From positions 186,001-250,000 of the forward strand of contig JAWLHB010000006.1 of the NCBI GenBank assembly GCA_041690595.1: 64,000 nucleotides of DNA. The letters run 5' to 3'. Numbering within the stretch: position 1 is the first letter of the stretch; each line of letters begins with the position of its first letter. The translations under genes were made by a program, and so were the position numbers. Of this stretch, positions 2,996-53,314 are shown piece by piece. Source of the DNA: Lentisphaeria bacterium. GTDB taxonomy: Bacteria > Verrucomicrobiota > Lentisphaeria > JABSQK01 > JAWLHB01. The notes below the pieces were generated by a model. It was not told the DNA's origin, made no database searches, and saw nothing but the letters and a program-made list of their open reading frames with translations.

Positions 2996-3009
2996 CCACC
3001 CCCGCGCCC

Positions 3010-3090
3010 GATCCGCCTGATCCGCCCGATCCGCCTGATCCGCCCGATCCGCCTGATCCGCCTGATCCGCCTGATCCGCCCGATCCGCCC
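3010..3090 (+). repeat. Tandem 9-bp repeat (GATCCGCCY)x9
   Basis: Read directly; intergenic, just after the DUF362 stop. Confidence 0.95.
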
Positions 3091-3126
3091 GATCTCGCGT
3101 CCCCGCGCTCGCCCTACCCCGCTCCT

Positions 3127-3157
3127 TCTTTGCGATCTTTGCGTTCTTTGTGGTTAA
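3127..3157 (+). repeat. Short 9-bp triplet TCTTTGCGA-TCTTTGCGT-TCTTTGTGG-TTAA
   Basis: Read directly; 27/31 identical to 17067-17097. Confidence 0.85.
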
Positions 3158-3261
3158 TTCCTGCCGCGTCCTCGTCTCCACCCATCCACTGCCGCCTCCC
3201 CGCCTGGCACCCGTCGAATTGGGTTGTATCGTATGCCACACCACAAAGACGGGAGAAACCG

Positions 3262-4341
3262 ATGATCGACGCGGCGAGATGGGCAAGACTGGGCGATGAA
3301 CCGTTGCCGGGCAAACTGCGGCTGCTGGACCAGACAAAGCTGCCGATGGAGACAACCTACATCGAGCTGGACGATGCCGCTCTCATCCATGAGGCCGTCA
3401 AGCGCCTGGTGGTGCGTGGCGCCCCCGCCATTGGCATTGCCGCCGCCTACGGGCTGATCGCCGTCGTGCAACACTCCCAGGCTACCAACGCCGCTGACTT
3501 CGAGAAAGAGGTGCGGAAGGCTGCCGACTACCTGGCTACGTCGCGCCCCACGGCGGTCAATCTCTTCTGGGCTTTGGACCGCTGTCGCGGGCGGCTCGCG
3601 CGGGAAATGGCCTCAAACCCAGACGTCGCGGCCCTCAAGGCGGCGCTCTGGCAGGAGGCGGATGCCATCTGCCGTGAAGATATCGCCATGTGCCGCGGCA
3701 TCGGCGAACACGGCGTCGAACTCTTCACCGCCCAGACCGGTGTCCTCACCCACTGCAACGCCGGTGCGCTGGCGACAGGCGACTACGGCACCGCCCTCTC
3801 CCCCATCTATCTGGCCCATGAGCGCAAGCTGAAGCCACGCGTCTTCGCCGACGAAACGCGGCCCCTCCTGCAGGGCGCGCGGCTGACCGCCTGGGAGCTA
3901 CAGCGGGCCGGCGTGGATGTAACCGTCATCTGCGACAACATGGCCGCCCAGGTCATGCGCGAAGGAAAGATCGACCTCGTCATCGTCGGCGCCGACCGCA
4001 TCGCCGCTAACGGCGACGCCGCCAACAAGATCGGCACCTATGGCGTCGCCATTCTCGCCAACTACCATGGCATCCCCTTCTACGTCGCCGCCCCCTACTC
4101 CACCATCGACATGGCCACCCCAACCGGAGCAGGCATTCCCATCGAGCAGCGTGATGGCGCCGAAATCGGCCACGGCTTCGGCCGTCAGACCGCCCCCACC
4201 GGCGTGACCTTCTACAATCCCGCCTTCGACGTCACCCCCCACGACCTCATCGCCGGCATCATCACCGAGCGCGGCATTCTCCGCGCCCCCTACGACCAGA
4301 GCATCCGCCAACTCTTCGCCTCCCCCACCCCCACAGCCTGA
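3262..4341 (+). CDS. mtnA: S-methyl-5-thioribose-1-phosphate isomerase
   Basis: LLDQTKLP, VRGAPAIG, SRPTAVNLFWA, LTHCNAGALAT, DETRPLLQGARLTAWEL, GADRIAANGDAANKIGTY, NPAFDVTP. ATG 3262 follows a GGGAG RBS; the ORF-track N-terminal PPD extension is the translated repeat. Confidence 0.95.
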   Translation: MIDAARWARLGDEPLPGKLRLLDQTKLPMETTYIELDDAALIHEAVKRLVVRGAPAIGIAAAYGLIAVVQHSQATNAADFEKEVRKAADYLATSRPTAVNLFWALDRCRGRLAREMASNPDVAALKAALWQEADAICREDIAMCRGIGEHGVELFTAQTGVLTHCNAGALATGDYGTALSPIYLAHERKLKPRVFADETRPLLQGARLTAWELQRAGVDVTVICDNMAAQVMREGKIDLVIVGADRIAANGDAANKIGTYGVAILANYHGIPFYVAAPYSTIDMATPTGAGIPIEQRDGAEIGHGFGRQTAPTGVTFYNPAFDVTPHDLIAGIITERGILRAPYDQSIRQLFASPTPTA

Positions 4342-4350
4342 CGCAATCCC

Positions 4351-4395
4351 GTCCGACACGTCCGACACGTCCGACACGTCCGACACGTCCGACAC
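4351..4395 (+). repeat. Tandem 9-bp repeat (GTCCGACAC)x5
   Basis: Perfect tandem array directly after the mtnA stop. Confidence 0.95.
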
Positions 4396-4436
4396 GTCCC
4401 CAGCCCCAACGGGCCCAACGGGGCTACGTCCCTTAG

Positions 4437-4473
4437 CCCAGGGTTGTGCCGCCAACGGCGGTGCTACCCTGGG
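4437..4473. repeat. REP-like palindrome / hairpin between convergent genes
   Basis: CCCAGGGT-tgtg-CCGCC-aac-GGCGG-tgct-ACCCTGGG forms a long stem with G-T pairs. Confidence 0.65.
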
Positions 4474-13700: not shown

Positions 13701-16692
13701 CCTCGTTGCCGGCGAAGCCACCATAGATGCCGACGCCATCGACCATCTGGAAGGTCGCATAGCGGTCGCCGGTGCCGCCGACCTGGACAGAGGGCCTGTA
13801 GGTCCCGGCAGCGACCCATATCTCATCACCACTAACTGCCCCTGTGAGCGCGTCCTGCAGGTCGTTGAAGGCGGTGGCCCAGGCGAGGCCGTCGCCGCCG
13901 TCGGCTACGGAGGCATCGACATACAGGATGGCGGCGACGCGCCCGGCTTCGTAAGCACCCATGTCGATCATGTCGTTCTGGACGCGATCATTGCCGGCGA
14001 GGTCGTAGGGGATGAGCTCGGCGGTGTCGTCGTCGCCGTCGAGGTCGGCAATGTCAGCGGGGAGGTAGAAGTCGACGTCGACATCTATGGCGGGTGAGCC
14101 GGCCTGTAGAGTGAGGTCGTCGTTGGGGGCATCGACGAAGAGGGGGTCACTGCCAGTCGCGTAAGTACCGCTCTGGATGATGGAACTCTGGATAATGATG
14201 GGATGGTTAATGAAATTAGCGATGACGATCTCGGTGCCGTTGCCCCAGAAAATGGAGCTTTGGGTGAAGTAGATATACTCGAAATTCTCGTTGTCGACAT
14301 CCATGTAGGCCGCGCCGCCGTTGCTGGCGGTGTTGAGACTGAAGGAGCAGTTGGTGATTATGGCCGTGCCTAAGAATTGATAAAGGGCGCCGCCCACGTC
14401 GGTGCTGCTGTTTCTGCTGAAGAGGCAGTTGGCAAAGGAGAGCGTGGAATATTGAGCTGCGATGGCGCCGCCCTGACTGCCAGTGGCGGAGTTTTGAATA
14501 AAGCGGCAATTGACGTAGGTCGGCGAGGAGAAATGCTCGTAGATGGCACCGCCGGTGGCAGCGGTGTTGAGGGTGAAGGAGCAGTTCGCGATGATCGGCG
14601 AAGAGGAGTAGCTGTTGTAAATGGCCCCGCCGCTGGTAGCGGTGTTTTGAGTGAAGGAGCTATTTCTGATGGTCGGGGATGACTCGGCATTGAAGATAGC
14701 GCCGCCAGATAGCGCGGAGTTCCGTGCGAAAGAGCAATCGGTGATCGTCGGTGAGGAGGAGTCTGTGTTGTAAATGGCACCGCCGTCAGAGCCGGAAGCA
14801 TTGTCGGTGATGGTACAAGCGGTGATGGTCGGCGAGGAACTGTGGCTGTAAATGGCGCCGCCACTACTGCCGTAACCGGCGACGGAGTTGTTCGTGATGG
14901 TGCAGTTACTGATGGCCGAGGAGGAGGAGATGAGGGCAATGGCGCCGCCGCTTTCGCTGGCATAATTTCCAGTGATCGTGCAGTTGCTGATAGTCGGTGA
15001 GGAGGAGTTGTTATAGATGGCACCCCCAAACTGGAAATCTTGATTAAGATCGGCGGTGCCGCCGGTAATCCTGACGCCGTCGAGGATGGCGGTGGCATCG
15101 AGCGCGAGGCCAAACTTGTGATAGAAGACGTGGTAGGCATTGTCGGGGGTGTAGTCCTGGGTGCCGATGTCGCCGGAGAGGGTGGTGATGTGGGTCTGCC
15201 AGTCGCGCTCCTCACGCGTGGTCTCTGTACCCGCAAAGCCGCCGTAGATGCCGACGCCGTTCTTCATCTGGAAGGTCACATAACGGGGACCGGTGCCGCC
15301 GTCTGGGCCGGCGGTGTTGCCAATGACCTGCACGGACGGCTTGTAGGTGCCGGCGGCAACCCAGATCTCGTCACCACTACCGGCCAATGTGAGCGCGTCC
15401 TGCAGGTCGTTGAAGGCGTTGGTCCAGGCGGAGCCGTCACCGCCGTCGGGGGCGGAGGCATCGACATAGAAGATGGGGCCGGTATAGTCGGGTACTTCGT
15501 AGGCACCCATGTCGACAGCGCTCCACCTGACACGCACTTGGCCGGCGAGGTCGTAGGGGATGGTCTCGGTGGTGTCGCTGTCGCCGTCGAGATCGGCAGT
15601 GTCGGCGGGGAGGGCGGCGTTGGAGCCGACGTTGATGGCGGGTGATCCGGGCTGGAGTCGAAGATTGCCATTGGCGGCATCGACAAAGAGGGGGTCGGCA
15701 TCGAGGTTGCTGTCGCCGGTCCAGCCGCCTTCGACGAGGGAGTAGGTGACGAGGGTTAGGGCGCCAGCGTTATCGACGATTTCGGTTCCGTTGCCCCAGA
15801 GGATGCAGTTGGTGAGCGTGGGGGAGCGCTCCAGATTGGTGTAGAGAGCGCCACCGGTGCCGGAGGCGCTGTTGCCGGTGAGGGTGCAGTTGATGAGCGT
15901 CGGGAACGAGTAATCGTTGGATATGGCACCTCCATCCCTGGCAGCGCTGTTGCCGGTGAAGATGCAGTTGATCAGCGTCGGCGAAGAGCTGCTGCCGTTA
16001 TAGATGCCGCCACCGTCGTAGAGTGCACTGTTTGCGGTGAAGGCGCAGTTGATCAGCGTCGGTGAGGATTGCGAATTGCTTATGCCGCCGCCAAATAGCC
16101 CATGGTTTGCCGTGAAGGTGCAGTTGCTTATGGTCGGTGAAGAGGCGTTGTTGCGCATACCGGCAGACCCGGCGCCGGTGATGGTGACGCCGTCGAGGAT
16201 GGCGGTGGCGTTGAGGTCCTGGTTCAGGACGACGTGGAAGGCGTTGTCGGAGACGGCGGCCTGGATGCTGATGCCGGGGGAGAAATCGCTGGTGGTGACA
16301 ATGTCACCGGAGAAGATAGTCCTGTGAGTAGTCCAGTCGCGATCGGCGCGGACGGTCTCGGTGCCCGCAAAGCCGCCATAGATGCCTACGCCGTTCTTCA
16401 TCTGGAAGGCGGCGTAGCGGTCGCCCGTGCCGCCGACCTGAACGGAGGGCTTGTAGGTGCCGGCGGCGATCCAGATCTCGTCGCCGCTGACGGCGACCGT
16501 CAGGGCGGCCTGCAGGTCGGTGTACGCGTTGGCCCAGTCCGCGCCGCTGCCCGTGCCGACAGCGTCGGCATCGACATGCAGGATGGAGGTCTGCGCCATG
16601 GGCGTCTGCGCCATGGTGGCAACCGAGGCAAGAAACGCCAACAACCCAAGCCTGATGTGACGCACAAACGAAGGTCCTACGGAAGCCGACAT
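4786..16692 (-). CDS. Giant secreted modular surface protein/adhesin: 6 parallel beta-helix (choice-of-anchor Q-like) modules, Calx-beta and Big_9/Ig-like domains
   Basis: ~3970 aa with a signal peptide. Six modules run from YVDA..GGDG..W..AF.DLQDAL...GDEIW.AAGTYKP to VDMGAYE and contain GGG(I/M)YN..SSPT..NC.F..N repeats; APVAVADA...GSFTY Ig repeats; Calx-beta ...TILDDD/DND. ATG 16692 has a GGAG RBS (alternative start 16719). Confidence 0.85.
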   Translation of the reverse strand: MSASVGPSFVRHIRLGLLAFLASVATMAQTPMAQTSILHVDADAVGTGSGADWANAYTDLQAALTVAVSGDEIWIAAGTYKPSVQVGGTGDRYAAFQMKNGVGIYGGFAGTETVRADRDWTTHRTIFSGDIVTTSDFSPGISIQAAVSDNAFHVVLNQDLNATAILDGVTITGAGSAGMRNNASSPTISNCTFTANHGLFGGGISNSQSSPTLINCAFTANSALYDGGGIYNGSSSSPTLINCIFTGNSAARDGGAISNDYSFPTLINCTLTGNSASGTGGALYTNLERSPTLTNCILWGNGTEIVDNAGALTLVTYSLVEGGWTGDSNLDADPLFVDAANGNLRLQPGSPAINVGSNAALPADTADLDGDSDTTETIPYDLAGQVRVRWSAVDMGAYEVPDYTGPIFYVDASAPDGGDGSAWTNAFNDLQDALTLAGSGDEIWVAAGTYKPSVQVIGNTAGPDGGTGPRYVTFQMKNGVGIYGGFAGTETTREERDWQTHITTLSGDIGTQDYTPDNAYHVFYHKFGLALDATAILDGVRITGGTADLNQDFQFGGAIYNNSSSPTISNCTITGNYASESGGAIALISSSSAISNCTITNNSVAGYGSSGGAIYSHSSSPTITACTITDNASGSDGGAIYNTDSSSPTITDCSFARNSALSGGAIFNAESSPTIRNSSFTQNTATSGGAIYNSYSSSPIIANCSFTLNTAATGGAIYEHFSSPTYVNCRFIQNSATGSQGGAIAAQYSTLSFANCLFSRNSSTDVGGALYQFLGTAIITNCSFSLNTASNGGAAYMDVDNENFEYIYFTQSSIFWGNGTEIVIANFINHPIIIQSSIIQSGTYATGSDPLFVDAPNDDLTLQAGSPAIDVDVDFYLPADIADLDGDDDTAELIPYDLAGNDRVQNDMIDMGAYEAGRVAAILYVDASVADGGDGLAWATAFNDLQDALTGAVSGDEIWVAAGTYRPSVQVGGTGDRYATFQMVDGVGIYGGFAGNEDLREARDVSANVTILSGDIGVKVTVTDNIYHVFYHPSGTNLDDTAILDGVTITGGNANGGSSEFRVGGGMYNDACSPTIANCTITSNTALGGGGGIYNTSSSPTIANCTISDNSTENSGDGGGIYNSSSSPTLTNCTISGNLTGFQKGGGIYNSASSPILTNCTIIDNVAGNGGALFNISASSAVITNSIISDNIASNGGIMFNSASSPILTNCTMSNNSSGFYNYNSPSVTIVNCILWENGVAITNNSSTTNVTYSIVQDGYTGTGNLDADPLFVDAANGDFRLGSGSPAINTGNTASLPADTADLDGDLDTAEILPYDLANSRRVKFGLVDMGAYETDQVGLYIITDNRYEGESGVGLLARDNAGPSSLVITLTSADTAEATVPATVTIAAGTSQATFAITNIDDADDTADTQVQITASAAGFASGVATTTIKDNDPATLTLVINPDSISEAAGAGAAYGILTRSLPFSTELTVTLSSDDTSEATVPATVTFAASASTAAFSFTAIDDGGVDDGDQSVTISASAPYYTGASDSLTVTDTDSTPVAVDDAYRFMQGNALHVSAAGVLANDSDADGGQLTATFVTDASNGTLVLNADGSFAWTPDSASVVSDSFTYEVYDSAGNTSAAATVTIRNSILLVDADAADGGDGLTWGTAFDDLQDALAFALDGDEIWIAAGTYKPSVEVGGSGDRYATFQMINGVGIYGGFAGTETAREQRDWSTHITTLSGDIGTPGDTSDNAYHVLRHPSGTNLDATAILDGVIITRGNANAANGENAFGGGMYNDGSSPTVTNCTFTGNSSNHRGAGMYNNGSSPTVTNCTFTANTGNTGGGGMYNQSSTPKVTNCTFTGNTARFGGGMFSIGSSAAVTNCTFTANTAIDDGGGMYNDSTSSPTVTNCTFTANSASDGGGMYNQNSSSLTVTNCILWGNGTEIVNGTGTPVVTYSIIQGGYAGTGNLNADPLFVDAATGDYRLQIGSPAINAGSNAALPADTADLDGDSDFAEPIPYDLRGSARIQSGTVNMGAFEGSVYVGPIFYVDASAPGGNGSDWTNAMNDLQDALTLAESGDEIWIAAGTYKPSVEVGGSGAPFATFQMKNGVGIYGGFSGTETAREERDWQTHVTILSGDIGIEDDASDNASYVIKSQDLDATAILDGVTITGASEAGMWNNYSSPTITNCTFTANHGAYGGGMYNVSSSPTLTNCTFTANSARRDGGGMNNVSFSSPTLVNCTFADNSATWDGGAIKNGGFSSPILINCTLTGNSATINGGAIHNFRSSLTLINCTLTGNSATGTGDGIYNDFDGSPTITNSILWDNGTEIVDTDAAVTTVTFSIVEGGFTGATNADPLFVDAGNGDYRLQPDSPAINAGSNAALPADVADLDGDLDTAEAIAYDLDGTDRVKNDTVDMGAYELLIPNVAPVAVADAWSIGRDNLLTVSAAGVLGNDTDDDGDQLTATVLTDVIHGELNLAADGSFTYMPADGYAGPDSFTYTVSDGIASDVGTVTLTVDAINRTLSIDSVTGDEDEGALTFTVTLSEVSGREVSAAYGTVAGSATAVSDYVGISGTLFIAAGQFTATIDVSVIDDAVYEGTESFTVVLSNPNRATIAVGSGSGTILDDENQPTVTLTSAPATIDEAGGVATFTATLSHATTQEVTVNLAISGTADSSDFSVSSQTIVIAALATTGSVTVTAIDDTLYEPGDNETVVLTLASVTGATAGSPDQAQTAIIDNDRLPTVTLTSAPATIDEAGGVATFTATLSHATTQEVTVNLAISGTADSSDFSVSSQTIVIAALATTGSVTVTAIDDTLYEPGDNETVVLTLASVTGATAGSPDQAQIAIIDNDRLPTTLFVDLDATGGANDGFSWANAFLDLQDALANTIPGDEIWIAAGTYYPSVQVGGSGPRYVTFQMKNNVGIYGGFAGTESARDERDWRSHVTILSGDLGTPTDNSDNAYYVVLNQDLDATAILDGVTITGATTSGMRNNASSPTISTCTFTANHGLFGGGISNSQSSPTLINCAFTANSALYDGGGIYNGSSSSPTLINCIFTGNSAARDGGAISNDYSFPTLINCTLTGNSASGTGGALYTNLERSPTLTNCILWGNGTEIVDNAGALTLVSYSIVEGGWTGEGNLNADPLFVDAANGDYRLQPGSPASNAGSNAAIPADLADLDGDLDTAEPIPFDLDGTARIKKDIVDMGAYELENTAPVAVADAWSIGSDNLLTVSAAGVLANDTDDDGDQLTATVATDVIHGELNLATDGSFTYMPADGYAGPDSFTYTVSDGIASDVGTVTLTVDAINRTLSIDSVTGDEDEGALTFTVTLSELSGRDVTVEYATVAGSATAVSDYVGTSGTSTIAAGQFTATIDVSLIDDAVHELTESFSVILSSAERATIAVGTGVGTILDDDAPAVSIAASSATEGQVLSLAVTLDGASPLVTSVSWSLTPGSALAGSDYVNGSGTLTFAAGVTSRMIDVQTVDDGLNEPMESFTVTLADLESLVPGVLTATGTIIDNDDPVLTVTLLAERVGESSGTTSATLSRNTETTAELVVSLSSSDATEAVVPATATIPAGSLSTTFTITVGDDDVADGDQAVLITATALGHASGSATLTVVDDDKALNIVYNLTLRGNQYGIQETLSGSGFLVLDLERRLVTMLVRWGNGAGERLDWSAAGLWYSVALDDGRTYWFLTNSDGRGEAGRFDYAELVGEASSTAVDLGGESAMVCAAFGGDWRFGEGVNEPTVTSAVTFAARIDLVTGRDANLRNRSHVELCEELIARYGIEVGGSTSLAATPSATPSTAGEGLICYSVSYSGLDMVDGAAMTMSYSGYLVLDLASGQMQAILGWRNASGLWYTIEEWTPLEAFHYQLQDGSNAYTMLGGYDPAGTTQGTGIQFKLLYGANRAADIGGGSVQSFPGSLAGEVWRHAPDSQEYHQAILSGTLRATETLHFNREGMSLLEAVDFLEARLPAGYQPVE
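8168..8844. repeat. Near-perfect intragenic tandem duplication, 336-bp period (112-aa Calx-beta-like domain x2)
   Basis: Block starting GTCGGGAGCCGGTCGTTGTCGATGATCGCG at 8168 recurs at 8504; the protein repeat PTVTLTSAPATIDEAGG...IIDNDRL is seen twice. Confidence 0.9.
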
Positions 16693-16934
16693 GAGCAATC
16701 TCCATGAAAAAATGAACATTACCAGCCGATCCGGCGGCTAAAAGGAAAAACAGTCTTGGATAGAATCGCATAATAATGTTCTATATCGATATTAGTACAA
16801 GATTTAGAATGCTTTTATTTTTAAACCAAACTATAATCAAATACATGCCTCCATTTGCCACCCCCCCATTCCGCCGACTTCCGCCTCGACAGGCCCGACA
16901 ACGTGGGAGTCCCCATCCTGGCCCTGCTATTGCC

Positions 16935-33123: not shown

Positions 33124-35580
33124 TCAGCTGCTCTCGCCAGTAGCGACCGGGGGCTCGATCGGGCCTCGCTGCAGGCGGGTCTGGAGACAGGCGATGACAT
33201 AGAAACCGATGAGGACATCCAGTTGATCGATAGGCCCCCAATTCTCTTCGGCCCAGTTTTCCGTCAGTGCATCCAGATACCAGATCCCCAGGGCACTGTG
33301 CTGATCGCGCCAGACCAGATCGGCGATCACCGCCTTGGCGTCGGGACCCGAGTCGATGCTGTAGCCGATGGCCGCGATCCCAATGGCAAGTTTGAGGAGG
33401 AGGTCGGCACAGGAACGCCATTCCTGCCGGTCGTAGGCGCTTTCCAGAGCCAGCGTCATGCGCAGGAGCGCGTCGTCCTCTTCATCGCTGCCGACACGAT
33501 TGAGCCGCTTGTGCAGCATGCGCCGCAGATCCTTGAGCAGCCGCTCCAGCTCACTCCCGTTCGCCTGCAGTTCCCGTGTCAGGAGGCGGTAGAACTCACC
33601 GGGCGTACCCAGAAGATCCGCGACCGCGACGGCGAGGGAGCGTTTGAGGACCGGATTGCGGGTATTACGCAGGTGGGGGATGATTTCATAGATCGCCGCA
33701 AGCTCCCCCAGCCGTGCCAGCGCTTCGCTGGAAGCAGAAAGTACCTTGGAGTCGTCGGTGGTGCGAATCAGGTCGAGCAGCGAAGGAATGGCGCGCGGAT
33801 CTCCGATGGCCCCCAGCGTGCGCGCGCTTTCGGAACATGTCTCGCGATCCCCGTCCGACAGCTTCTCCAGAAGCGCATCGACACTGGCTGGGGCAGGGTT
33901 CTCCCGCAAGGCGCGCGCGATCTGTGGCGCCAAATCGGATTCAGGGGTCTGCAGGCGCTCGATCAACGCCTGAATGGCTTCGGGACTGCCGATCTTACCG
34001 AGCGCCAGCACGGTCTCTTCGCGCACATCCGGCGAAGGATCATCGAGCTTTTCGATGAGATCGCTGACCGCGATACTGGTCTTGCGCTCTCCAAGCCGGC
34101 GAGCCGCGCCGGCGCGCTTGTCGCTGGAGCCATGACTGTTGATCTGGTAGATGTGATAGAGATTGCTCATCGCGCGGAGGGGATTGCCGATCCGCGCCAG
34201 AGCCAGGCCCAGCGGAAGATCGCCTCCCCGGCTGCGCACCATCAGCATCAGCGGCGCACAAATCAGCCAGGAGACACTCACATGCCCCATCGCCAGAACA
34301 TGATAGAAGGAGACGCCGGCGCCGCTGGGCAGTTTCCACGCAAGCGGATGCTCACCCACCCAGTCCATGATGAAACCCGCGATAACCGGCCCGAGTGCCG
34401 CCAGCAGGCCGATGATCGACCAGTGCATCGCCATCGCCACCGTGCGCCCCTCCTTGGGCGCGAGCTGGCTGGCAAGGTGCAACTGGCAGATGCCGATTCC
34501 CGAGTACAACGCCCCGGCTACAAGGTTGGTGCAGGCAAACATCGCGATCGGCTGCGGAACCACAACGGCCCCCAGTATCGGCAGGTACACGTGAACCGGA
34601 TGCGGCGACACGAAGAACCAGGCAAAAGCAAAGGCCGGCGCGGCCACCAGCAGTATCGTCGCAAAGGTACGTGCCCCTACCCTGTCCGCCAGATAACCCA
34701 GCGGGAAGCCACCGATCACCCCCCCCAGCGACGCGCTGATGGTGATCAGCGCAATGTGCGTGTACGAGGCCCCGAAATCTCGCTTCAGATAGATCATGGC
34801 GAAGGAGCCAACCAGGCCGACCCCAAAGTACCACATCCCCATCGAACAGGTCAGCCACCGGAAATCCCGATCCTGAAGCGGCTCCAGCAGCCGCGCCATC
34901 ACCTTGACCTGGTGCGTGCGCCGACGTGCCCGCGGCTCCGGGACACGCAAGTGCACGAGGATATCCGCAATCCCCAGAAGTGCGGCTATGCTGAAGACGA
35001 TCGAGAAGCCCGTGTACTTCCCCGCGTCCGTCGGGAAGGCATCCAGAATCACGCCCGCCACACCCATGGCGATCAGGTACGCGAGCATCACCCAGCTCTG
35101 CCGTTTGCCCCAGAAGCGGCCGCCCACCCCCTCCGGCACCAGATCGGCCATCCAGCTGAACCAGGACGCTGCCGATGCCTGTGCCAGCACCGAGCTGATC
35201 AGCACCACCCCGAGCACCGACCACGCCGTTGCACGGCGATGCTCCGACAAGAGCAGCGGCAGCAGCGCCGGAAGAAACCAGACCACCCGATGCACCACCG
35301 CAAGCGACGCCCAGTATAACTTCCGCGAGGCCAGCCGTTCCGACAAGAACGCCGCCGGCACCTGCGCCACCATCGAGAGCTGCTGCACCGTCACCGTCAT
35401 GCCGATCATCACGCCACCCGCGCCCAGCGCTTCGAAGAGCATCGTCAGCGGTATCCCCAGCGCCATCGCCAACCAGCCCATGCCAAAGGCACCGGCAACA
35501 ATATTCGTGCGCAATCCCTGGCGGATGCGCCGATCAGTCAAAGGCAGGCCATCGACAGTGACCAGAGGGGGCGAAGACAC
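33124..35580 (-). CDS. MFS transporter fused to C-terminal HEAT/PBS-lyase repeats
   Basis: ~12 TM MFS region (SWMADLVP...GRFWGKR; GYLADRVG) followed by LIEKLDDP.PDVREE.VLALGKIG-type HEAT repeats. Start uncertain: GTG 35580 or ATG 35676. Confidence 0.8.
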   Translation of the reverse strand: MSSPPLVTVDGLPLTDRRIRQGLRTNIVAGAFGMGWLAMALGIPLTMLFEALGAGGVMIGMTVTVQQLSMVAQVPAAFLSERLASRKLYWASLAVVHRVVWFLPALLPLLLSEHRRATAWSVLGVVLISSVLAQASAASWFSWMADLVPEGVGGRFWGKRQSWVMLAYLIAMGVAGVILDAFPTDAGKYTGFSIVFSIAALLGIADILVHLRVPEPRARRRTHQVKVMARLLEPLQDRDFRWLTCSMGMWYFGVGLVGSFAMIYLKRDFGASYTHIALITISASLGGVIGGFPLGYLADRVGARTFATILLVAAPAFAFAWFFVSPHPVHVYLPILGAVVVPQPIAMFACTNLVAGALYSGIGICQLHLASQLAPKEGRTVAMAMHWSIIGLLAALGPVIAGFIMDWVGEHPLAWKLPSGAGVSFYHVLAMGHVSVSWLICAPLMLMVRSRGGDLPLGLALARIGNPLRAMSNLYHIYQINSHGSSDKRAGAARRLGERKTSIAVSDLIEKLDDPSPDVREETVLALGKIGSPEAIQALIERLQTPESDLAPQIARALRENPAPASVDALLEKLSDGDRETCSESARTLGAIGDPRAIPSLLDLIRTTDDSKVLSASSEALARLGELAAIYEIIPHLRNTRNPVLKRSLAVAVADLLGTPGEFYRLLTRELQANGSELERLLKDLRRMLHKRLNRVGSDEEDDALLRMTLALESAYDRQEWRSCADLLLKLAIGIAAIGYSIDSGPDAKAVIADLVWRDQHSALGIWYLDALTENWAEENWGPIDQLDVLIGFYVIACLQTRLQRGPIEPPVATGESS

Positions 35581-35826
35581 GAGTAGATATTCTCCAGAAT
35601 AGTCGGCGTACGTTAACCTCTCTTCCCCAACTTTCGAGCCATAACTAAAGGAATAAAAACCCTTTCTCCCCTTCATTCAGACATCAAAGATGCAATGCTT
35701 TGCTTTAAAAGCGATATAGTCGCGCTATCTTCCGCTGAATCCACCTGAGCAAGAACGCCCAAGCCAGGGTGCCGACGCGCCTGCCCCCCCCATCTTCATC
35801 GTCCACTTTCAGCTGCGAGTACTGTC

Positions 35827-38713: not shown

Positions 38714-40306
38714 TCATCGGGGCAAGGCCGTACCGTCTTGCGGTGGGGCCAGACTCTCCCTCGCCTTGTGAAGCTTGTCGATGAATCTGCCTCGCTTGAA
38801 GGCACTGAGCCAGTGCTGCATGATGATCCAGCCCCCAAAGCGCCGTATCGAATTCCGCCATGAACGGTACCACCGCCGCCACCCCACCTGCAGCCGGAAG
38901 ACAGAGAAGACCATCGAGGGAAAGATCAGGATGTTGAGGGCTATGGCGAACATGTACCGGAAGCGATAGAAGCGTCCCATGATGCGGCGAAGGCAGATGA
39001 GCATCTGCTCCGGCGTCATCGGCGGATCCGGCTGAAAGAGCGGAAAATTCCCGTCGTAGTAGTCCCACCCGATGATGTCGCGAGGAAAGATCCGGTGCTG
39101 CGCGTCGAGCCGCGCCGTCAACTCCGTTCCCGGCAGAGGCACCGGAAGCAGTATCTGAATCGTGTCGATGCGCGCCTTTTGGATGAATCGCCTGAAGTGA
39201 CGGACCCGCTGCTCAGGAGTTGTGCTCAGGTGTACCCCGTCCGGCATCGGATAGCCGAAGATGAACATCCCGTGCACCAGAAAGCCCGCTTGGTGAAAGA
39301 TTTTGGTGAGCGCGAGCATCTCCTCCGGCTTCACCTTCTTGTTCATCGCCGCAAGCTCTTCAGGTATCGGCGATTCGAAGCCGATGCAGACCGTGTTGAT
39401 CCCTGCGGCTCTCATCGCCGTAAGCAGCTCCGTATCCCGCGCCCGGTCGAGGCGGATCTGAACCGTGATGTCGAGCTTGCCGCGGATCGCCGCCTGGTAA
39501 TCCGCGAGCAGTCGGCAGAGCCGCAACGCCTCGACCCGACGTTGCCCGAAAAGATCGTCCACAATGAAAAAGGTCCGCGCGTTGCGGCTCTCCACCAGCG
39601 CGGCTATCTGCTCGACAACACGCTCCGCGGACGACGGCCGCGGCTTACCCTTGACGGTGCAGAACTCGCAGTCCATGCCGCAGCCGCGCACCCAGTTGAT
39701 AGGATAGACCTTGACCTTGGCGTAGCGCAGAAGGCTGTAGTCGGTCAGGGGAAGGTGGTCGAAGTGGGTCAGGGGCGGCCGCTGCGCGGTCTGAATAACC
39801 TGACCATCCCGCTTGAAGGCGATACCCGCCACCTTGCCCGGATCCTCGTTGAGGGTGATGGCGGTGAGCAACGCCTGAATACTCTCCTCGCCCTCGCCAA
39901 GGACGACATAGTCGATGCCATGATCCAGCGCGTCGGCAATGTTGTCGCCGCAGAAGTGCTGCCCGCCGGCTATGGTGATCACCCCCTGAGCATGGTAAAA
40001 TTCGGCGATCTCGAAAAGCCTGGGAATGGTGCTGCTCAGACCACCATACAGACCAAGCACATCGACCGACCGGATCAACTGCAGCGTCGCATGATCGGGG
40101 CGACCCGATTCATCGGCGGGACCGTACTTGCGGTAGTTGTTTTCGTCGATCATCTCCACGTCCCAGCCTTCCATGTGGCTGATAACGGTGGCGACGTTCA
40201 GCGGCCCCAGCGCCGTTGTCTGCCTGGCAATACCGGAGTAGACATTGAACGCCGGATACGCGGGCGCGACCATGCGGAAGCGGCGAACCCTGGCGGCAGT
40301 TTGCAC
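38714..40306 (-). CDS. B12-binding radical SAM protein
   Basis: N-terminal cobalamin-binding-like region (AGGQH, VLGEGE); RGCGMDCEFC CxxxCxxC; FIVDDLF; IGFES; PLPGT. Confidence 0.9.
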   Translation of the reverse strand: MQTAARVRRFRMVAPAYPAFNVYSGIARQTTALGPLNVATVISHMEGWDVEMIDENNYRKYGPADESGRPDHATLQLIRSVDVLGLYGGLSSTIPRLFEIAEFYHAQGVITIAGGQHFCGDNIADALDHGIDYVVLGEGEESIQALLTAITLNEDPGKVAGIAFKRDGQVIQTAQRPPLTHFDHLPLTDYSLLRYAKVKVYPINWVRGCGMDCEFCTVKGKPRPSSAERVVEQIAALVESRNARTFFIVDDLFGQRRVEALRLCRLLADYQAAIRGKLDITVQIRLDRARDTELLTAMRAAGINTVCIGFESPIPEELAAMNKKVKPEEMLALTKIFHQAGFLVHGMFIFGYPMPDGVHLSTTPEQRVRHFRRFIQKARIDTIQILLPVPLPGTELTARLDAQHRIFPRDIIGWDYYDGNFPLFQPDPPMTPEQMLICLRRIMGRFYRFRYMFAIALNILIFPSMVFSVFRLQVGWRRWYRSWRNSIRRFGGWIIMQHWLSAFKRGRFIDKLHKARESLAPPQDGTALPR

Positions 40307-48525: not shown

Positions 48526-49296
48526 TCAGGCGTGAGTCTGGCCGCCATCCACCAGCACACAGCTCCCGGTGACGAAGGAGGCGCGGGGCGAGGCAAGGAA
48601 CGCAGCCACGTCAGCGATCTCGCGAGGAGTGCCGAAGCGCTGCATCGGCACGTTTTCCCGAATGTATGTCTCGAAGAACTCGCGCCGTTCCGCCAGCTTT
48701 TTCTCCCAGGAACCGCCCGGAAAGAGGATGTTGCCGGGGGCAATGGCATTGACGCGGACGCCCGACGCGGCAACCTGGCGGGCCAGGTTCTTGGTGAGAC
48801 TGAGGAGTGCCGCCTTGGCGGCGCTGTAGGGGAGAGGTGCCGGAGTCGCTTCCCAGCCGGTGATGGACGAGATGATCACCAGGCTGCCGCTGCTCGCCAT
48901 CAGGCAGGGCATGATCTGACGGATGAGGCTGGTCGCCGAGGTGAGGTTGACAGTGAGCAGGCGGCTCCACTCCTCCTGGTCGATATCCCAGCCCGGCTGG
49001 CCGCTGCCGCTGCCGACATTGGCAACCGCCGCATGAATCTCACCGAAGCGGCCCTGCGTCCGGGAGATGAAGTCAGCCAGTTGCTTGGCGTCGGTCACAT
49101 CGGCAGGCATGGCAAAGAGGCGATCCTCACCGAAGCGCCCGGCAAGTTCGGCGCGGCTCTTCTCGAGTGATTCGGCACCACGGGCACAGATCGCGACGCT
49201 GGCCCCCTCCTCCAGGAAGACCTCGGCGATCGCCCGGCCGATGCCGCGGCTGGCACCGGTGATCAGGGCAACCTTTCCATGCAGCTCAAGATTCAT
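48526..49296 (-). CDS. Short-chain dehydrogenase/reductase
   Basis: TGASRGIG, YSAAK, RVNAIAPG, VTG..V.VDGG; ATG 49296 overlaps the upstream gene. Confidence 0.9.
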   Translation of the reverse strand: MNLELHGKVALITGASRGIGRAIAEVFLEEGASVAICARGAESLEKSRAELAGRFGEDRLFAMPADVTDAKQLADFISRTQGRFGEIHAAVANVGSGSGQPGWDIDQEEWSRLLTVNLTSATSLIRQIMPCLMASSGSLVIISSITGWEATPAPLPYSAAKAALLSLTKNLARQVAASGVRVNAIAPGNILFPGGSWEKKLAERREFFETYIRENVPMQRFGTPREIADVAAFLASPRASFVTGSCVLVDGGQTHA

Positions 49297-50149
49297 GCCT
49301 CGCCTCCTCAAGATGCTCTTCCACGAAGCGGCGGTGGGCGATGGCCAGCTCCACCTCCCCACCCTCCTGGCCGCGAGCGGTCTGGAGGATGTAGGGGCGG
49401 TCGTAGCCCAGGCGAAGAAACGCCGCGAAACAGGCCGCGAAATCCGTGTCGCCGGTGCCGGGTTCGACGGTGCCGCCGCCGCGGAGGCGATCCTTGATGT
49501 GGACGCTGCCGAGACGATGACCGTAGGCGGCAAGCTCCTCAGACGGGCGGTATCCCAGGCTGGCACTGTTGCCGGTGTCATAGTTGGCACGAATCCCGGG
49601 AGGGCACTGGTCGAGGAGCCCAGCAAAGTCACTGGGTGGTAGATCGGTCTCGAGATGCAGTTCGAGCCCATGCCGGTCGAGGAGCGGCTGCAGGTCGCCG
49701 AGTTGCGTGGCGAGCAGCTCCCGACTGGCCGCATCGTGGCGGAGGGAGGAGCTGTCGACGAAGGGTAGGACGATATAGTCGAGGCCTAGGATGGCCGCCT
49801 GACCGATGAGCCAGCGAAGATGCTCCCAAGTGTCGGCATCGGGACGGCCGTCGCGGATCAGCAGCTCGGTCATGAAGTAGTCCGCGCAGATGGAGCGGAT
49901 GCGAACGCCCGTCGCCTCGCTGAGCCGACGGATCTCGTCGAGCCCGCTTGCGCTCCCGATCGGATTCTCCGCCAGATGTGGCCGCTCATGGATCCACTCG
50001 ATGGAGACAAGCCCGGCGTCGCGGGCTCGGGCAAACTCCTCGCGCCAGGAGTCGGCCGGAAAGGCCTGAAAGCGTCCTTCAAAAGGGGGCGAAAGGCGCC
50101 CATGCATGATGCCGACCTGAACCGGCCGCGCTGTAGGGGATGGATTCAC
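49286..50149 (-). CDS. Sugar phosphate isomerase/epimerase (xylose-isomerase-like TIM barrel, hexulose-phosphate epimerase-like)
   Basis: GIMHGRL, IEWI, SICADYFM, LHLETD, NYDTGN, VHIKDR, GTGDTDF. Confidence 0.85.
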   Translation of the reverse strand: MNPSPTARPVQVGIMHGRLSPPFEGRFQAFPADSWREEFARARDAGLVSIEWIHERPHLAENPIGSASGLDEIRRLSEATGVRIRSICADYFMTELLIRDGRPDADTWEHLRWLIGQAAILGLDYIVLPFVDSSSLRHDAASRELLATQLGDLQPLLDRHGLELHLETDLPPSDFAGLLDQCPPGIRANYDTGNSASLGYRPSEELAAYGHRLGSVHIKDRLRGGGTVEPGTGDTDFAACFAAFLRLGYDRPYILQTARGQEGGEVELAIAHRRFVEEHLEEARHES

Positions 50150-50182
50150 GGAAAGCTCCCTCTCGGTGTTGATCGGACAGGC

Positions 50183-51166
50183 CTAACGCTTGAAGCGATA
50201 GGGGGAAGGGCCGGCTGATGTTTCACCGCTACGCTCGGCATCCCATCGCTTGATCTGACCGATGATGTCGACATTGACATTGGCGCTCCACGCATCCAGC
50301 AGTTGGCGGGTGACCGGCCCCATCGGGCCACTGCCGATGCTCTCGGAATTGAGCTGGCTGACAGGCAGAATGCAGAAGGGGGTGCCGGTCATGAAGGCCT
50401 CATCGGCCGTGATCACGTCAAAGGGATGCAGGTTGGTTTCACGGCAGGGCAAGCCGAGCTGAGGGGCCAGGACATCCATGACGTACTGGCGGCTGATCCC
50501 GCGCAGGATGTTGCGCCCTTCCGGCGTAAGGATGACGTTGTCCTTCACGATGAAGAAGTTATCGCCTGTTCCCTCGGCGATGAAGCCGTCGGTGTCGAGC
50601 AGAAGCGCCCAATTGTTATCCCCGGCGTAGTTCGAGACTTCGATGTTCGCCATCTGGTAGTGAATGCGGCTGCGATTCTTCACCTTCGGCTCGAGCAGAT
50701 CCGCGGGGATGGCGCGCTGGGAGGGAATGACGGCATTGATGCCGGTATCGAAGAGATTGCCCATCCCGGTTACTGTCCAGCGGAGCGGAAAGTCGGCAAT
50801 GACGACATTGGGTCCCTTGCGCAGCCCGGGGATCCCCTGATAGATGGAGAGGAGCCCGCGCGACACGTCGATCATGATGCGATGCTCGTCGTCGTCACTG
50901 AAGGTCGGATCGTTCTCCTCGATGGTCGCGTAGACCAGCGCTTCCATCTCGTCGATGGAGATCGTCATCGGGATCCGCAGGAAACGGATGGAATCGTACA
51001 GGCGGACGAGATGCTCCCGCAGCTTGAACTGCTCCTTGTTGAAGGAGCGGGTCATCTCGAAGACCATGTCACCGAACATCAGGGCGGAATCGTAGACGGA
51101 AATCCGAGCTTCCGATTCTGCTACAAACTCACCATTCATCCAGATCTTACGCTGCGGAGTGGTCAC
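50183..51166 (-). CDS. Class IV (BCAT/DAAT/ADC-lyase fold) PLP aminotransferase
   Basis: IWMNGEFV, FGD.VFE..R, H..RL..S, PKVK (PLP lysine), EGTGDNFF, ILRGISRQ, DEAFMTGT. Confidence 0.9.
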   Translation of the reverse strand: MTTPQRKIWMNGEFVAESEARISVYDSALMFGDMVFEMTRSFNKEQFKLREHLVRLYDSIRFLRIPMTISIDEMEALVYATIEENDPTFSDDDEHRIMIDVSRGLLSIYQGIPGLRKGPNVVIADFPLRWTVTGMGNLFDTGINAVIPSQRAIPADLLEPKVKNRSRIHYQMANIEVSNYAGDNNWALLLDTDGFIAEGTGDNFFIVKDNVILTPEGRNILRGISRQYVMDVLAPQLGLPCRETNLHPFDVITADEAFMTGTPFCILPVSQLNSESIGSGPMGPVTRQLLDAWSANVNVDIIGQIKRWDAERSGETSAGPSPYRFKR

Positions 51167-51190
51167 TGATCGTTGTCCTTGAAAAAGGGT

Positions 51191-51937
51191 TTACTGGGCG
51201 AGCGATGGCCGATAGACGGTATCGTACCATGCGATGATGTCGGTGATGTGAAAGCTCGGATTGCGCGGATACAGGTAATCGTAGAGTTCCGCCATGAAGC
51301 GGTACTGCTTCTCGGTGTTGACGTCCAGCACGAGATCCGGTCGCCGGAACGCTTCCGGGCAGGAAACCGTGCCGACCGGGAAGCGCTCCGCATCCACGGG
51401 CCGCTGCCCGTCATAGTCGTAGAAGTTACGATGCGGATGCTCACGAAGCAAGGGATCGCTGACACTGCTCCAGACCGACTCCAGGCAATCGACCCGCATC
51501 ACCTCGGCCCCGATACCATCCGGATAGCCATTGCCCATCACCTGTGCCAGATTGGACGAGAAGGCATTCGGGGAGGCGAGGTGGTAGTCGATGATCCGGT
51601 CGATCTCGGCCGGCTCCGGGGTGACGTTGTCCGCAGGCAACCGCGCAATGTCGGTGACGCCGACATGGCGGGCAGCCATCAGGTAGCGATCGACAAGGTC
51701 GTTCTCGGCGCCGCGGAAGACGACGACGCCATAGCGTTCACCCAGCTCGGCGAGCACGTCATCTTCGGCCTTCTGGGGAATGGCCAGAACGATGGCGCTG
51801 GGACGGCGACAGCGCTTGACCCGTTCCAGTATGCGCCCGACAAGGGGCTCCCCAGCCAGTGGCATCATGGATTTGCCCGGCAGGCGCGTGGAGCCCATGC
51901 GGGCCTGAAGAATGAGAGCAGCACTGCGTTCGGCCAT
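51191..51937 (-). CDS. SpsF-like/acylneuraminate cytidylyltransferase family protein
   Basis: ILQARMGSTRLPGK, FRGAENDLVDRY, R.PADN, YPDG..AEV, REH, LDVNT; start ATG 51937. Confidence 0.85.
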   Translation of the reverse strand: MAERSAALILQARMGSTRLPGKSMMPLAGEPLVGRILERVKRCRRPSAIVLAIPQKAEDDVLAELGERYGVVVFRGAENDLVDRYLMAARHVGVTDIARLPADNVTPEPAEIDRIIDYHLASPNAFSSNLAQVMGNGYPDGIGAEVMRVDCLESVWSSVSDPLLREHPHRNFYDYDGQRPVDAERFPVGTVSCPEAFRRPDLVLDVNTEKQYRFMAELYDYLYPRNPSFHITDIIAWYDTVYRPSLAQ

Positions 51938-51953
51938 GTACCGGTACTCCGGA

Positions 51954-52802
51954 TTAAGCGGTGGGAAGGTGCTGACGGAGTTTTTCGGCGACTTTGCGTT
52001 CTTCGGGCAGGATGCGCTTGACCCCATCGCCCATGGCGCCCGGGATCTTGCGTATGGCGCCGACCAGCATGCGGAGGCCGGATGGTTCGACGGAGGCGGC
52101 CTGGTCGCTGCCATACATGCTGCGGTCGAGGGTGATGTGGCGCTCGAGGGAGGTGATGCCGAGGGCGGCGGCCGCGTAGGAGACGGCGAGACCCACTTCA
52201 TGACCGCTGTAGCCCACGGCGCAGGTGTACCGGTTGCGGAGAGTTTCGATGCACTTGAGGTTGGCGTGGCTTTCGTCCATCGGATAGGTGCCGACGCAGT
52301 GCATGAGTTCGAAGGGGCAATCGGCATCCCGGAAGATCTTGACGATGGCGTCGATCTGCTCCAGTTCCGACATGGCGGTGGAGATGAAGGTGTGCTTGCG
52401 GCGCTGGGCAACGGCGCGGGCGAAGTCGGGCCAGGCATTCATGGCGCCGGCGACCTTCTGGTACTTGCAGTCAAACTGGTCGAGGAAAGCGAGCGCGTCG
52501 AGATCCCAGGCCGAGGCGAACCACTCGATGCCCTGCTCGCGGCAGTAGCGGTCGATCTCGCGGAACTCCTCCAACTCGAACTCGAGCCCCTTCTTCTGGT
52601 CGCGCTGCGTGGTTCCCCAGGGGGAGTCGCGGAGGCCGTCGAGATACTCCTGGGTGTAGACCTTGTCGATCGTGCGCTTCTGGAACTTCACGGCGTCGCA
52701 GCCCGCATCGACCGCTACATCGATGAGCTTCTTGGCAATATCGAGATCGCCGTTGTGGTTGATCCCGACTTCGGCAATAACAACTATGCGGGGATTACTC
52801 AT
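51954..52802 (-). CDS. neuB: N-acetylneuraminate synthase (NeuB/SpsE) family, short form without C-terminal SAF domain
   Basis: IAEVGINHNG, DAVKFQKR, FASAWD, ISTAMS, MHC..TYP, GYSGHE, ERHITLDR.MYGSDQ.AS. Confidence 0.85.
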   Translation of the reverse strand: MSNPRIVVIAEVGINHNGDLDIAKKLIDVAVDAGCDAVKFQKRTIDKVYTQEYLDGLRDSPWGTTQRDQKKGLEFELEEFREIDRYCREQGIEWFASAWDLDALAFLDQFDCKYQKVAGAMNAWPDFARAVAQRRKHTFISTAMSELEQIDAIVKIFRDADCPFELMHCVGTYPMDESHANLKCIETLRNRYTCAVGYSGHEVGLAVSYAAAALGITSLERHITLDRSMYGSDQAASVEPSGLRMLVGAIRKIPGAMGDGVKRILPEERKVAEKLRQHLPTA

Positions 52803-53314
52803 GATGCGTCTCCTTTAAGTGAGGGAAAGAGAGCGTCGGCAAGGGCGCGGATGACCCCTTCGCCGCCGCGGCGGTCAAGGATACAGTGAGCCAGATCGAG
52901 GATGATCGGATGCGCATCGGCCGGACAGAGCCGCAGGCCGACCGCGCGCATGACGGAAAGATCGTTGAGATCGTTGCCCACAAAGGCGACCCGATCCAGG
53001 TCGATCTCGCGTTCGTCGCAATAGCCGCGCAACGTGGCAAGCTTGTCGCTGCTGCCATGCAGAACCGGCAGCTTGAGCTTCTCGGCGCGACGGGCAACCA
53101 CCACGTTCCGCTCCGTGGAAAGAATGAGCATCTGGCAGCCGGCGGCGCGCATCATGTCCAGCCCCAGACCATCCCCCCGATTGCAGAAGACAGCTTCATG
53201 GCCGTCGTCGAAGACGAGGACGCGGTTGTCCGTCATGACACCGTCGAAATCGAAGACCCAGAGGCGAATGCTGCTGAGGTGATCGCTGGAGATCTGAACG
53301 GTGGAAGATGGCAT
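52799..53314 (-). CDS. KdsC-family HAD phosphatase (Kdo8P/KDN9P phosphatase-like)
   Basis: FDFDGVMTD, R.DG.G, ILSTE, K, FVGNDLND, CPADA, GGEG..R; ATG 53314. Confidence 0.85.
   Translation of the reverse strand: MPSSTVQISSDHLSSIRLWVFDFDGVMTDNRVLVFDDGHEAVFCNRGDGLGLDMMRAAGCQMLILSTERNVVVARRAEKLKLPVLHGSSDKLATLRGYCDEREIDLDRVAFVGNDLNDLSVMRAVGLRLCPADAHPIILDLAHCILDRRGGEGVIRALADALFPSLKGDAS

Follow-up and report, generated by a model that had tools for sequence, protein, structure and literature searches.

A NeuB-linked six-gene cluster of a Lentisphaeria bacterium as a member of a widespread cassette family with a probable role in amino-ulosonic acid synthesis

We analysed a 64,000-nucleotide stretch of a Lentisphaeria bacterium (GenBank assembly GCA_041690595.1, contig JAWLHB010000006.1, positions 186,001 to 250,000; hereafter the window), in which six tightly packed minus-strand genes at 48526..53314 encode a NeuB-family synthase together with a class IV aminotransferase. 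This cluster belongs to a widespread cassette family, split here over two contigs, that with a probability which we put at about 0.7 makes an amino-ulosonic acid activated with cytidine monophosphate (CMP) for a surface glycan without NeuC, an ulosonate being oxidised to a side-chain ketone and the ketone converted to an amine. Ulosonic acids cap many microbial surfaces, and in the amino-ulosonate pathways known to us the nitrogen comes from NeuC or from fold-type I aminotransferases. The family is found in many bacterial phyla and two archaea, according to the record titles of the close loci, and in 32 viral contigs, and it appears to be unstudied; we found no published description of the gene set in a search that left most subscription papers outside, so that its absence from print is not established. 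It raises the claims that a fold-type IV aminotransferase, a type not known for activity on sialic-acid-like sugars, acts on a sugar ketone, that a radical SAM enzyme may replace a phosphatase and three further enzymes, and that a NeuB may use a heptose.

The six-gene cluster and its aminotransferase clade

The original prediction had placed six genes in a given order, and both order and completeness were borne out by six uninterrupted open reading frames (ORFs), joined by overlaps of 4 and 11 nucleotides and by gaps of 16, 24 and 33. They encode a KdsC-like phosphatase of the haloacid dehalogenase (HAD) type (52799..53314, 171 aa, PF08282), a NeuB-family synthase (51954..52802, 282 aa) that, as predicted, matched PF03102 only and no SAF domain, an SpsF-like cytidylyltransferase, the putative CMP-ulosonate synthetase (51191..51937, 248 aa, PF02348 above its cut-off), a class IV, i.e. 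fold-type IV, pyridoxal phosphate (PLP) aminotransferase (50183..51166, 327 aa, PF01063), a xylose-isomerase-like metal TIM barrel resembling UlaE (49286..50149, 287 aa, PF01261) and a short-chain dehydrogenase/reductase (SDR), here called SDRa (48526..49296, 256 aa, PF13561). None of the six proteins reached the cut-off of a named NCBIfam model. The absences listed beforehand were also found: queries from the same genome for NeuC, PseB/LegB, PseC/LegC, PseG, PseH and NeuD had no match in the whole window, and no glycosyltransferase stands among the six genes. Lacking NeuC/LegG/PseG, a 4,6-dehydratase and a DegT aminotransferase, the window falls outside the N-acetylneuraminic (Neu5Ac), legionaminic (Leg) and pseudaminic (Pse) acid pathways. 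The flanking genes have other functions, the GC content at third codon positions (GC3) of the cluster genes is 0.74-0.84 for a genome GC of 0.615, and a promoter and terminator scan gave a chance-level result with a single promoter-like site at 53409-53381 (1 found, 0.8 expected).

The aminotransferase is associated with NeuB. Its relatives were collected by a scan with one genome per species, and the best 80 of 169 were retained. They split into 36 close loci, with 59-75% identity (a frameshifted copy in locus L036, counted as close, scores 43%), and 44 distant ones, with 29-34%. NeuB is present in 34/36 close loci, the two misses being short contigs (3.5 and 4.3 kb); it is 47-70% identical to the NeuB of the window in 30 loci and of a more distant type in four. 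None of the other five cassette genes, NeuB included, was found in the 44 distant loci. The co-conservation of aminotransferase and NeuB, on which the original prediction depended, is thus seen. In L015 and L031 the aminotransferase gene has the opposite orientation to NeuB and TIM barrel; assembly frameshifts affect the aminotransferase in L031 and both aminotransferase and TIM barrel in L036.

Besides being linked to NeuB, the enzyme differs from an ordinary IlvE in its scores and in its pocket residues. It reaches 182 of 245.55 bits with TIGR01122 and 206 of 363 with PRK08320, both IlvE-type models, and the cut-offs for D-amino-acid transaminase and aminodeoxychorismate lyase are likewise unmet (110 of 277 bits with TIGR01121, 66 of 177 with TIGR03461). 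Its nearest solved chains are the branched-chain aminotransferases 5mqz, 5cm0 and 5e25 (179 bits), with which it shares the fold, the PLP-binding residues and the catalytic lysine; (R)-selective amine transaminases are only distant matches at about 100 bits. R55, K163 and E198, the PLP-binding Arg, Lys and Glu of IlvE, are constant in 79/79 clade members, and Arg96, the counterpart of a conserved Arg in branched-chain enzymes, is kept. In contrast to the branched-chain enzymes, position 38 changes from G to M, 94 from Y to E, 167 from Y to R and 263 from A to P, R103, R165 and Y109 are additional invariant residues, and the clade stands on a long stem branch with its NeuB linkage. M38, E94, R103, Y109, R165 and R167 occur in 79/79 members and P263 in 77/79, and at all seven positions the five IlvE-like outgroups differ.

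Where it is annotated, the clade aminotransferase bears only the name "branched-chain" or "class IV" aminotransferase. Of 7005 candidates from a protein search with it, irrespective of gene context, 5826 had E <= 1e-60. Further class IV genes of housekeeping type are present in the hosts, two in the source genome and extra copies in 5/5 other hosts tested. Annotated phage and plasmid records held no member of the clade (best 33-37%). A NeuB-linked copy was found in 0/40 sampled relatives of the source genome, which indicates that the cassette is patchy and was probably acquired.

Partner genes and the order of steps

The remaining slots of the cassette are filled in alternative ways. Among the 36 close genome loci, 19 hold the TIM barrel and/or a second SDR (SDRb) and 13 a radical SAM/twitch protein, none holds both and four hold neither; the viral loci are divided similarly (15/32, 14/32, none and three). 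The two forms interchange with 12 switches on the aminotransferase tree, compared with a shuffled mean of 23.5. In a survey of radical SAM partners, covering 80 of 506 metagenome loci, this protein stood with the class IV aminotransferase in 22 loci, with a class III aminotransferase in 23, with one of two other SDRs in 6 (SDRc) and 5 (SDRd), and with both aminotransferases in 1, while 23/80 loci, many of them short contigs, had no visible partner. In these loci the class III aminotransferase always comes with a glyoxalase-fold protein, and SDRd comes with one as well. On a plasmid of Azospirillum thermophilum, short NeuB, HAD, NeuA, TIM barrel, SDRa and SDRb are accompanied by an orthologue of SDRc (up to 52% identity), and the 24.8 kb examined contain no gene annotated as a class IV aminotransferase. 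A related set on a plasmid of Methylomagnum ishizawai (L200, 2014-8459) comprises an SpsF-like gene, two transketolase subunits, a class III aminotransferase, an SDRb-like SDR (48%), a HAD gene and a short NeuB of another, Nonomuraea/Hymenobacter/Methylomagnum type.

Because the aminotransferase changes places with another aminotransferase class and with oxidoreductases, the simplest reading is that it acts on a sugar ketone. The original prediction had also allowed a substituent related to a D-amino acid, and the aminotransferase might correspondingly make such an amino acid as an acyl substituent, or recycle an amino donor, the sugar being 3-deoxy-D-glycero-D-galacto-nonulosonic acid (KDN) or an epimer. 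Fold-type IV enzymes do act mostly on 2-oxo acids, and the retained Arg96 is in keeping with this; however, the one-for-one exchange with SDR oxidoreductases and a class III aminotransferase, the lack of any ligase or acyltransferase recurring with the aminotransferase in the gene clusters examined, and a D-amino-acid transaminase score far below the cut-off make this explanation extremely improbable.

The window NeuB remains below the cut-offs of the NeuB and PseI models (232 of 399.65 bits with TIGR03569, 168 of 340.25 with TIGR03586); NeuBs without SAF domain are described as an environmental group (PMC8208679). A FastTree phylogeny of 111 sequences was built without a characterised KDN synthase, a Nonomuraea/Hymenobacter/Methylomagnum group serving as presumed KDN-type reference. 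In it, 94 cassette sequences including that of the window form one group (support 0.96), separate from the Nonomuraea/Hymenobacter type and from the Neu, Pse and Leg synthases of the source genome. K42-R43 is constant in 91/91 NeuBs of the cassette clade, where the Neu, Pse and Leg synthases of the source genome have T/L-Y, and we take this pair to resemble synthases using phosphorylated sugars. The loop motif of the clade is also unlike that of the Nonomuraea/Hymenobacter type, which is itself taken as KDN-like without proof. The window NeuB may thus condense phosphoenolpyruvate (PEP) with an aldose phosphate, either heptose 7-phosphate or mannose 6-phosphate.

NeuBs whose distances amount to a few hundredths of a substitution per site stand beside a class IV aminotransferase, a class III aminotransferase or an SDR (for example L114/L115, L125/L131 and L132/L138), and this mixture of partners among nearly identical synthases indicates that tailoring probably follows condensation. 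Alternatively, the amine could be introduced before NeuB: an aldose or ketose phosphate would be oxidised by SDRb and TIM barrel, or by the radical SAM protein, and converted by the aminotransferase to an amino-aldose phosphate, to which NeuB would add PEP, a logic like that of kanosamine NtdABC. UlaE, the nearest solved relative of the TIM barrel, acts on a ketose phosphate, transaldolase- and transketolase-family genes occur in L034 and L036, and several of the invariant arginines of the aminotransferase could bind a phosphate. Nevertheless, this order is improbable in our estimate, considering that the substrate of the near-identical NeuBs seems not to change with the partner and that amination before NeuB does not explain why the radical SAM form is missing a phosphatase.

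The type of CMP synthetase, in turn, follows the partner, one type being found in 70/91 class IV loci and another in 21/25 class III loci, an association that may reflect specificity or plain linkage. The SpsF-like protein of the window is 65-69% identical to those of L024 and L026; most other loci have NeuA-type genes in this slot instead. The window phosphatase scores 102.6 of 208 bits with the KdsC model and 94.8 of 180 with the KDN-9-phosphate phosphatase model NF058599, below cut-off in both cases, and would remove the terminal phosphate of the ulosonate phosphate.

The distribution of the phosphatase sets the two forms apart. Profiles of the two HAD families found in these loci, complemented by a looser motif scan, were used for this survey. 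The profiles detected a phosphatase in 15/19 genome and 11/15 viral loci of the TIM/SDRb form (26/34) and in 3/4 loci that pair SDRc with the aminotransferase, compared with 1/13, 0/14 and 0/80 radical SAM loci (1/107); among loci of at least 9 kb with NeuB, the counts were 26/31 and 1/56, respectively. The near absence of the phosphatase from radical SAM loci suggests that the radical enzyme stands in for it as well as for TIM barrel and SDRs. This protein of 266 residues has BtrN as nearest solved relative, by profile (E 4.3e-13) and as rank 1 in Foldseek, with 18% identity, and was not found in the source genome. At about even odds, it abstracts a hydrogen at the penultimate carbon of its substrate, so that the terminal phosphate leaves and a methyl ketone results; we know of no enzyme precedent for such a radical elimination, and a literature search for one found none. 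Methyl ketones are substrates for fold-type IV (R)-amine transaminases as well as for class III transaminases. Since a radical enzyme that dispenses with the phosphatase fits an elimination of the terminal phosphate, we tentatively prefer a ketone at the penultimate carbon together with a terminal deoxy group. The form seen in the window may lead to this deoxy ketone or else to a hydroxymethyl ketone, as the four loci with SDRc and aminotransferase suggest that the terminal hydroxyl can stay.

The TIM barrel had been predicted to be an epimerase, of which the fold and the likeness to UlaE hold and the activity is doubtful. A single-sequence search of the PDB with it gave nothing, whereas the profile search succeeded: UlaE is the nearest solved structure (E 5.9e-26; Foldseek TM 0.80 on a model of pLDDT 92), followed by the keto-sugar isomerase Art22. 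The window protein presents the fold and the Glu, Asp and His metal site of UlaE and the ketose 3-epimerases, the first Glu being retained, and E167, D191, H217, K219, D220 and Q256 are constant in 34/34 TIM barrels. Gln256, however, aligns in all 34 with the Glu of the LIEMW motif, the second catalytic Glu of UlaE, for whose role as acid/base in two-base epimerisation a literature search found no confirming text. If that Glu is the second acid/base, its replacement by Gln favours a one-base isomerase or an eliminase acting on a keto sugar over an epimerase. The TIM-barrel query had no match among 401 genomes from a single gammaproteobacterial order, a search that had no positive control, and in annotated records it matched no phage and two plasmids.

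The two SDRs exhibit different cofactor fingerprints at the end of the second strand, Arg39 in 14/14 SDRa and Asp40 in 30/30 SDRb, which correspond to the usual NADP(H) and NAD(H) types. The oxidising role that had been given to the window SDR is therefore not borne out: SDRa was ruled out as the oxidant on this fingerprint, and with the NADP(H)-type Arg it more probably acts as a reductase. Of the loci with a TIM barrel, 16/18 in genomes and 14/15 on viral contigs also have the NAD-type SDRb. In the source genome it lies outside the window, on another contig (G000:C81:7678-8505), intact and 70% identical to the SDRb of L024, a locus whose remaining cassette genes are 46-72% identical to those of the window. 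On C81 it is flanked by legB-like and legC genes and adjoins an O-antigen-ligase-like gene.

Alternatively, the TIM barrel and two SDRs could form an epimerisation module of the acinetaminic acid type, working on a CMP-nonulosonate such as CMP-legionaminic acid from elsewhere in the genome, with the aminotransferase intercepting the oxo intermediate and the short NeuB making a separate KDN-like sugar. The source genome does hold Leg, Pse and Neu sets, SDRb has the leg-type neighbours just named and resembles PRK09186, and the Azospirillum copy adjoins leg genes; Aci modules with SDRs have been proposed to convert CMP-Leg (PMC5595891). Nevertheless, NeuC/LegG was found in 0/148 related loci and LegB/LegC-level matches in 1/148. 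Leg or Pse genes were detected in 0/32 viral loci at the thresholds used, where NeuB, NeuA and the aminotransferase are still found together. We therefore consider this scenario very improbable.

In the route that we favour, the short NeuB would join PEP to D-glycero-D-manno-heptose 7-phosphate, the product of GmhA, or to mannose 6-phosphate, and the HAD enzyme would take off the terminal phosphate. The NAD-type SDR of C81, the TIM barrel and the NADPH-type SDR would rework the side chain until one ketone remains; in the sister form, a single BtrN-like radical SAM enzyme would do all of this, the phosphatase role included. The class IV aminotransferase would then convert the ketone to an amine, and the SpsF-like enzyme would add CMP before or after these tailoring steps. 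The gene identities, the dedicated clade, the patterns of co-occurrence and exclusion and the residue changes are observed, whereas all substrates, the site that is aminated, the sequence in which the enzymes act and the number of carbons are inferred. In the sequence of oxidation, epimerisation and transamination proposed originally, oxidation followed by transamination fits the gene swaps; two-base epimerisation is doubtful, and the window SDR is unlikely to be the oxidant.

The heptose link and the length of the carbon chain

The original prediction assumed a nonulosonate; a nine-carbon backbone is not required, as the association with GmhA would allow ten carbons. GmhA-family genes are present in 36/148 loci and lie <=700 bases from NeuB in 25 of the 30 loci that hold both; in L011 and L035 GmhA is fused to the phosphatase, and it also occurs in radical SAM loci. 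The locus copies have GmhA as best family, with 152-204 of the 209 bits required by TIGR00441, a range shared by most stand-alone copies of the hosts, and the GmhA motifs are kept in most of 31 locus copies, those of L002 and L103 being divergent. Among the 36 genome loci, GmhA was present in 7/9 from lineages without lipopolysaccharide (LPS), i.e. Chloroflexota, Actinomycetota, Bacillota monoderms and archaea, two of these seven being close relatives, compared with 2/27 others. This pattern is consistent with a pathway dependent on heptose 7-phosphate, which it would draw from LPS synthesis where that is present, possibly here. GmhA at the level of the host genome was rejected as evidence: a strong copy stands elsewhere in 15/20 hosts without a locus copy, yet 39/40 relatives without cassette match as well, and the source genome has HldE- and GT9-type genes, which makes this criterion uninformative.

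We give a ten-carbon backbone slightly less than even odds, and the same odds to a KDN-type backbone made from mannose 6-phosphate. A more specific proposal, which we regard as rather unlikely in its entirety, is that heptose 7-phosphate and PEP serve the family as precursors of ten-carbon ulosonic acids activated with CMP; here the product would be an amino-dec-2-ulosonic acid, probably 9-amino-3,9,10-trideoxy, whereas the sister twitch radical SAM enzyme would eliminate the terminal phosphate and so give the 9-oxo-10-deoxy ketone in one step, the class IV or class III aminotransferase or the SDR setting the group at C9. If this were true, the 10-deoxy ten-carbon acid (C10H18O9, 282.095) would have the formula of an O-methyl-KDN and could have been misread in mass surveys. 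For CMP-activated products, the calculated [M-H]- values are 572.113 for CMP-KDN, 571.129 for amino C9, 555.135 for amino-deoxy C9, 602.124 for C10, 601.140 for amino C10, 585.145 for amino-deoxy C10 and 586.129 for deoxy C10. A methylated 3,10-dideoxy ten-carbon ulosonic acid reportedly occurs in the O-chain of Rhizobium radiobacter; a literature search did not find this report, which is not used here as support. In Magnetospirillum, ten-carbon CMP-ulosonic acids were observed by mass spectrometry, with no genes assigned in the section concerned, and these sugars are doubly N-acetylated and carry a single O-acetyl group (bioRxiv 10.64898/2026.04.20.719630). The present cassette alone would not account for these acyl groups.

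Weighing the cassette in its genome and among known systems

Several observations weigh against an amino-ulosonate cassette with the features proposed here. The repeated exclusion between the TIM/SDRb and radical SAM forms comes from related loci, which do not count as independent cases. With the looser motif scan, five further hits appeared in radical SAM loci, two of them GmhB-like motifs in 400-aa proteins several kilobases away. In four loci SDRc is the only partner of the aminotransferase, and three of these have a phosphatase, so that the terminal deoxy group cannot be required. GmhA is missing from the window and from most loci, and a different aldose phosphate could come from an altered SIS enzyme. 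The window NeuB deviates at three near-invariant positions of its clade (G119, A143 and G171), and the close loci L014, L020, L032 and L034 hold only a more distant NeuB with SAF domain. The window has no SDRb, and the copy on C81 could serve the legionaminic acid pathway instead. Finally, a 45%-identical sister aminotransferase occurs in 3/40 sampled relatives, all of one genus, with no cassette gene within 16-17 kb.

Some of these loci have features of their own. The sister aminotransferases (L205-L210, in genomes G427, G433 and G423) keep a KNRSR-like motif but not EHR or GTPF, and inspection of their neighbours by eye showed metallo-hydrolase-like, TIM-barrel-like and class III-like aminotransferase genes without NeuB. 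In L020, a 629-aa NeuB with SAF and an extra C-terminal domain (L020:5548-7437) takes the place of the short NeuB, beside HddA/HddC-like genes; an added isomerase/epimerase domain is described for NeuB of Serratia KL1/KL2 (PMC9000132).

The missing SDRb and the absence of an adjacent transferase could also mean that the cluster is a decaying, incomplete import which makes CMP-KDN at most. That 0/40 relatives have a NeuB-linked aminotransferase and that NeuB carries three substitutions at near-invariant sites would be consistent with decay; against it, the six ORFs are intact with their catalytic residues kept, SDRb is intact as well, and GC3 is 0.74-0.84. In addition, contig C63 has, near its Leg-type genes, a match to a LIC12162-like transferase (20-22%, weak) and one to a cassette-type methyltransferase (34-38%). 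We judge such decay quite improbable. LIC12162-family transferases, methyltransferases, flippases and ABC exporters are among the polysaccharide genes that surround the related loci.

Elsewhere in the source genome, contig C4 has a Pse set and a NeuA-NeuB-NeuC set, C63 a Leg-type set and C81 legB-like and legC genes. Three more NeuB-family synthases, with neighbours of Neu, Pse and Leg type, belong to these regions (L081-L084: on C4 at about 41 kb and at 164-171 kb, on C63 and on C81), and the NeuA-NeuB-NeuC set on C4 adjoins fliF. Among the loci on viral contigs (L165-L197), 32/33 hold the aminotransferase clade, 28 of the 32 with NeuB, and both forms are present; on a bacterial contig, L028, the cassette lies among SU10 capsid and adaptor genes. 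These loci suggest virus-encoded glycosylation.

Compared with known systems, the core of the cassette is akin to the KDN-9-phosphate route and its likely tailoring logic to that of Kdo8N (8-amino-8-deoxy-Kdo) and of BtrN/aminotransferase pairs. The CMP-KDN route of Bacteroides thetaiotaomicron proceeds via KDN 9-phosphate with a NeuB-family synthase, a HAD phosphatase and a CMP synthetase, the same NeuC-free trio. The cassette differs in its separate clade of SAF-less synthases, the other substrate-loop motif and a phosphatase below the NF058599 cut-off; it adds the aminotransferase, TIM barrel and SDRs and, in related loci, the GmhA link. In the Kdo8N pathway of Shewanella, where KdnA is the aminotransferase, a hydroxyl of the ulosonate is oxidised and then transaminated, which is the likely logic here too. 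The oxidant there is KdnB, an iron-dependent 8-oxidase (PMC5125639), and a scan of the six genes and of recurring neighbours found no member of this alcohol dehydrogenase family. The cassette has an SDR/TIM or radical SAM oxidant in its place, and it differs further by its fold-type IV aminotransferase and by a synthase of NeuB and not KdsA type.

AciC may be a TIM barrel of the family found in the cassette. The acinetaminic and 8-epi-acinetaminic acid modules aciABCD and aciAECD of Acinetobacter baumannii resemble the cassette in combining a CMP synthetase with SDRs that rework an ulosonate side chain and in that a swap of one gene alters the product, but they sit on a full lgaABCDEF pathway and lack an aminotransferase (PMC5595891, PMC9676051). 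The cassette, by contrast, has no adjacent lgaABCDEF and no NeuC/LegG. The sister form shares with BtrN and its aminotransferase, in butirosin, a BtrN-related radical SAM enzyme that alternates with NAD(P)-dependent enzymes; at 18% identity, it seems to replace the phosphatase too, which a plain dehydrogenase does not explain.

Other genes of the window lie at a distance from the cluster. A VKOR/SPW protein (161-1693), a fusion of MFS and HEAT repeats (33127-35676) and a B12-binding radical SAM protein (38717-40306) have no visible tie to the cassette. Short tandem repeats at about 2965-4455 and near 33000 read as PPDPPD or VSDVSD runs in overlapping ORFs. On the minus strand, 4789-16719 encodes what is probably a large surface protein, 3977 aa long, in which beta-helix, Calx-beta, cadherin-like and Ig domains are combined.

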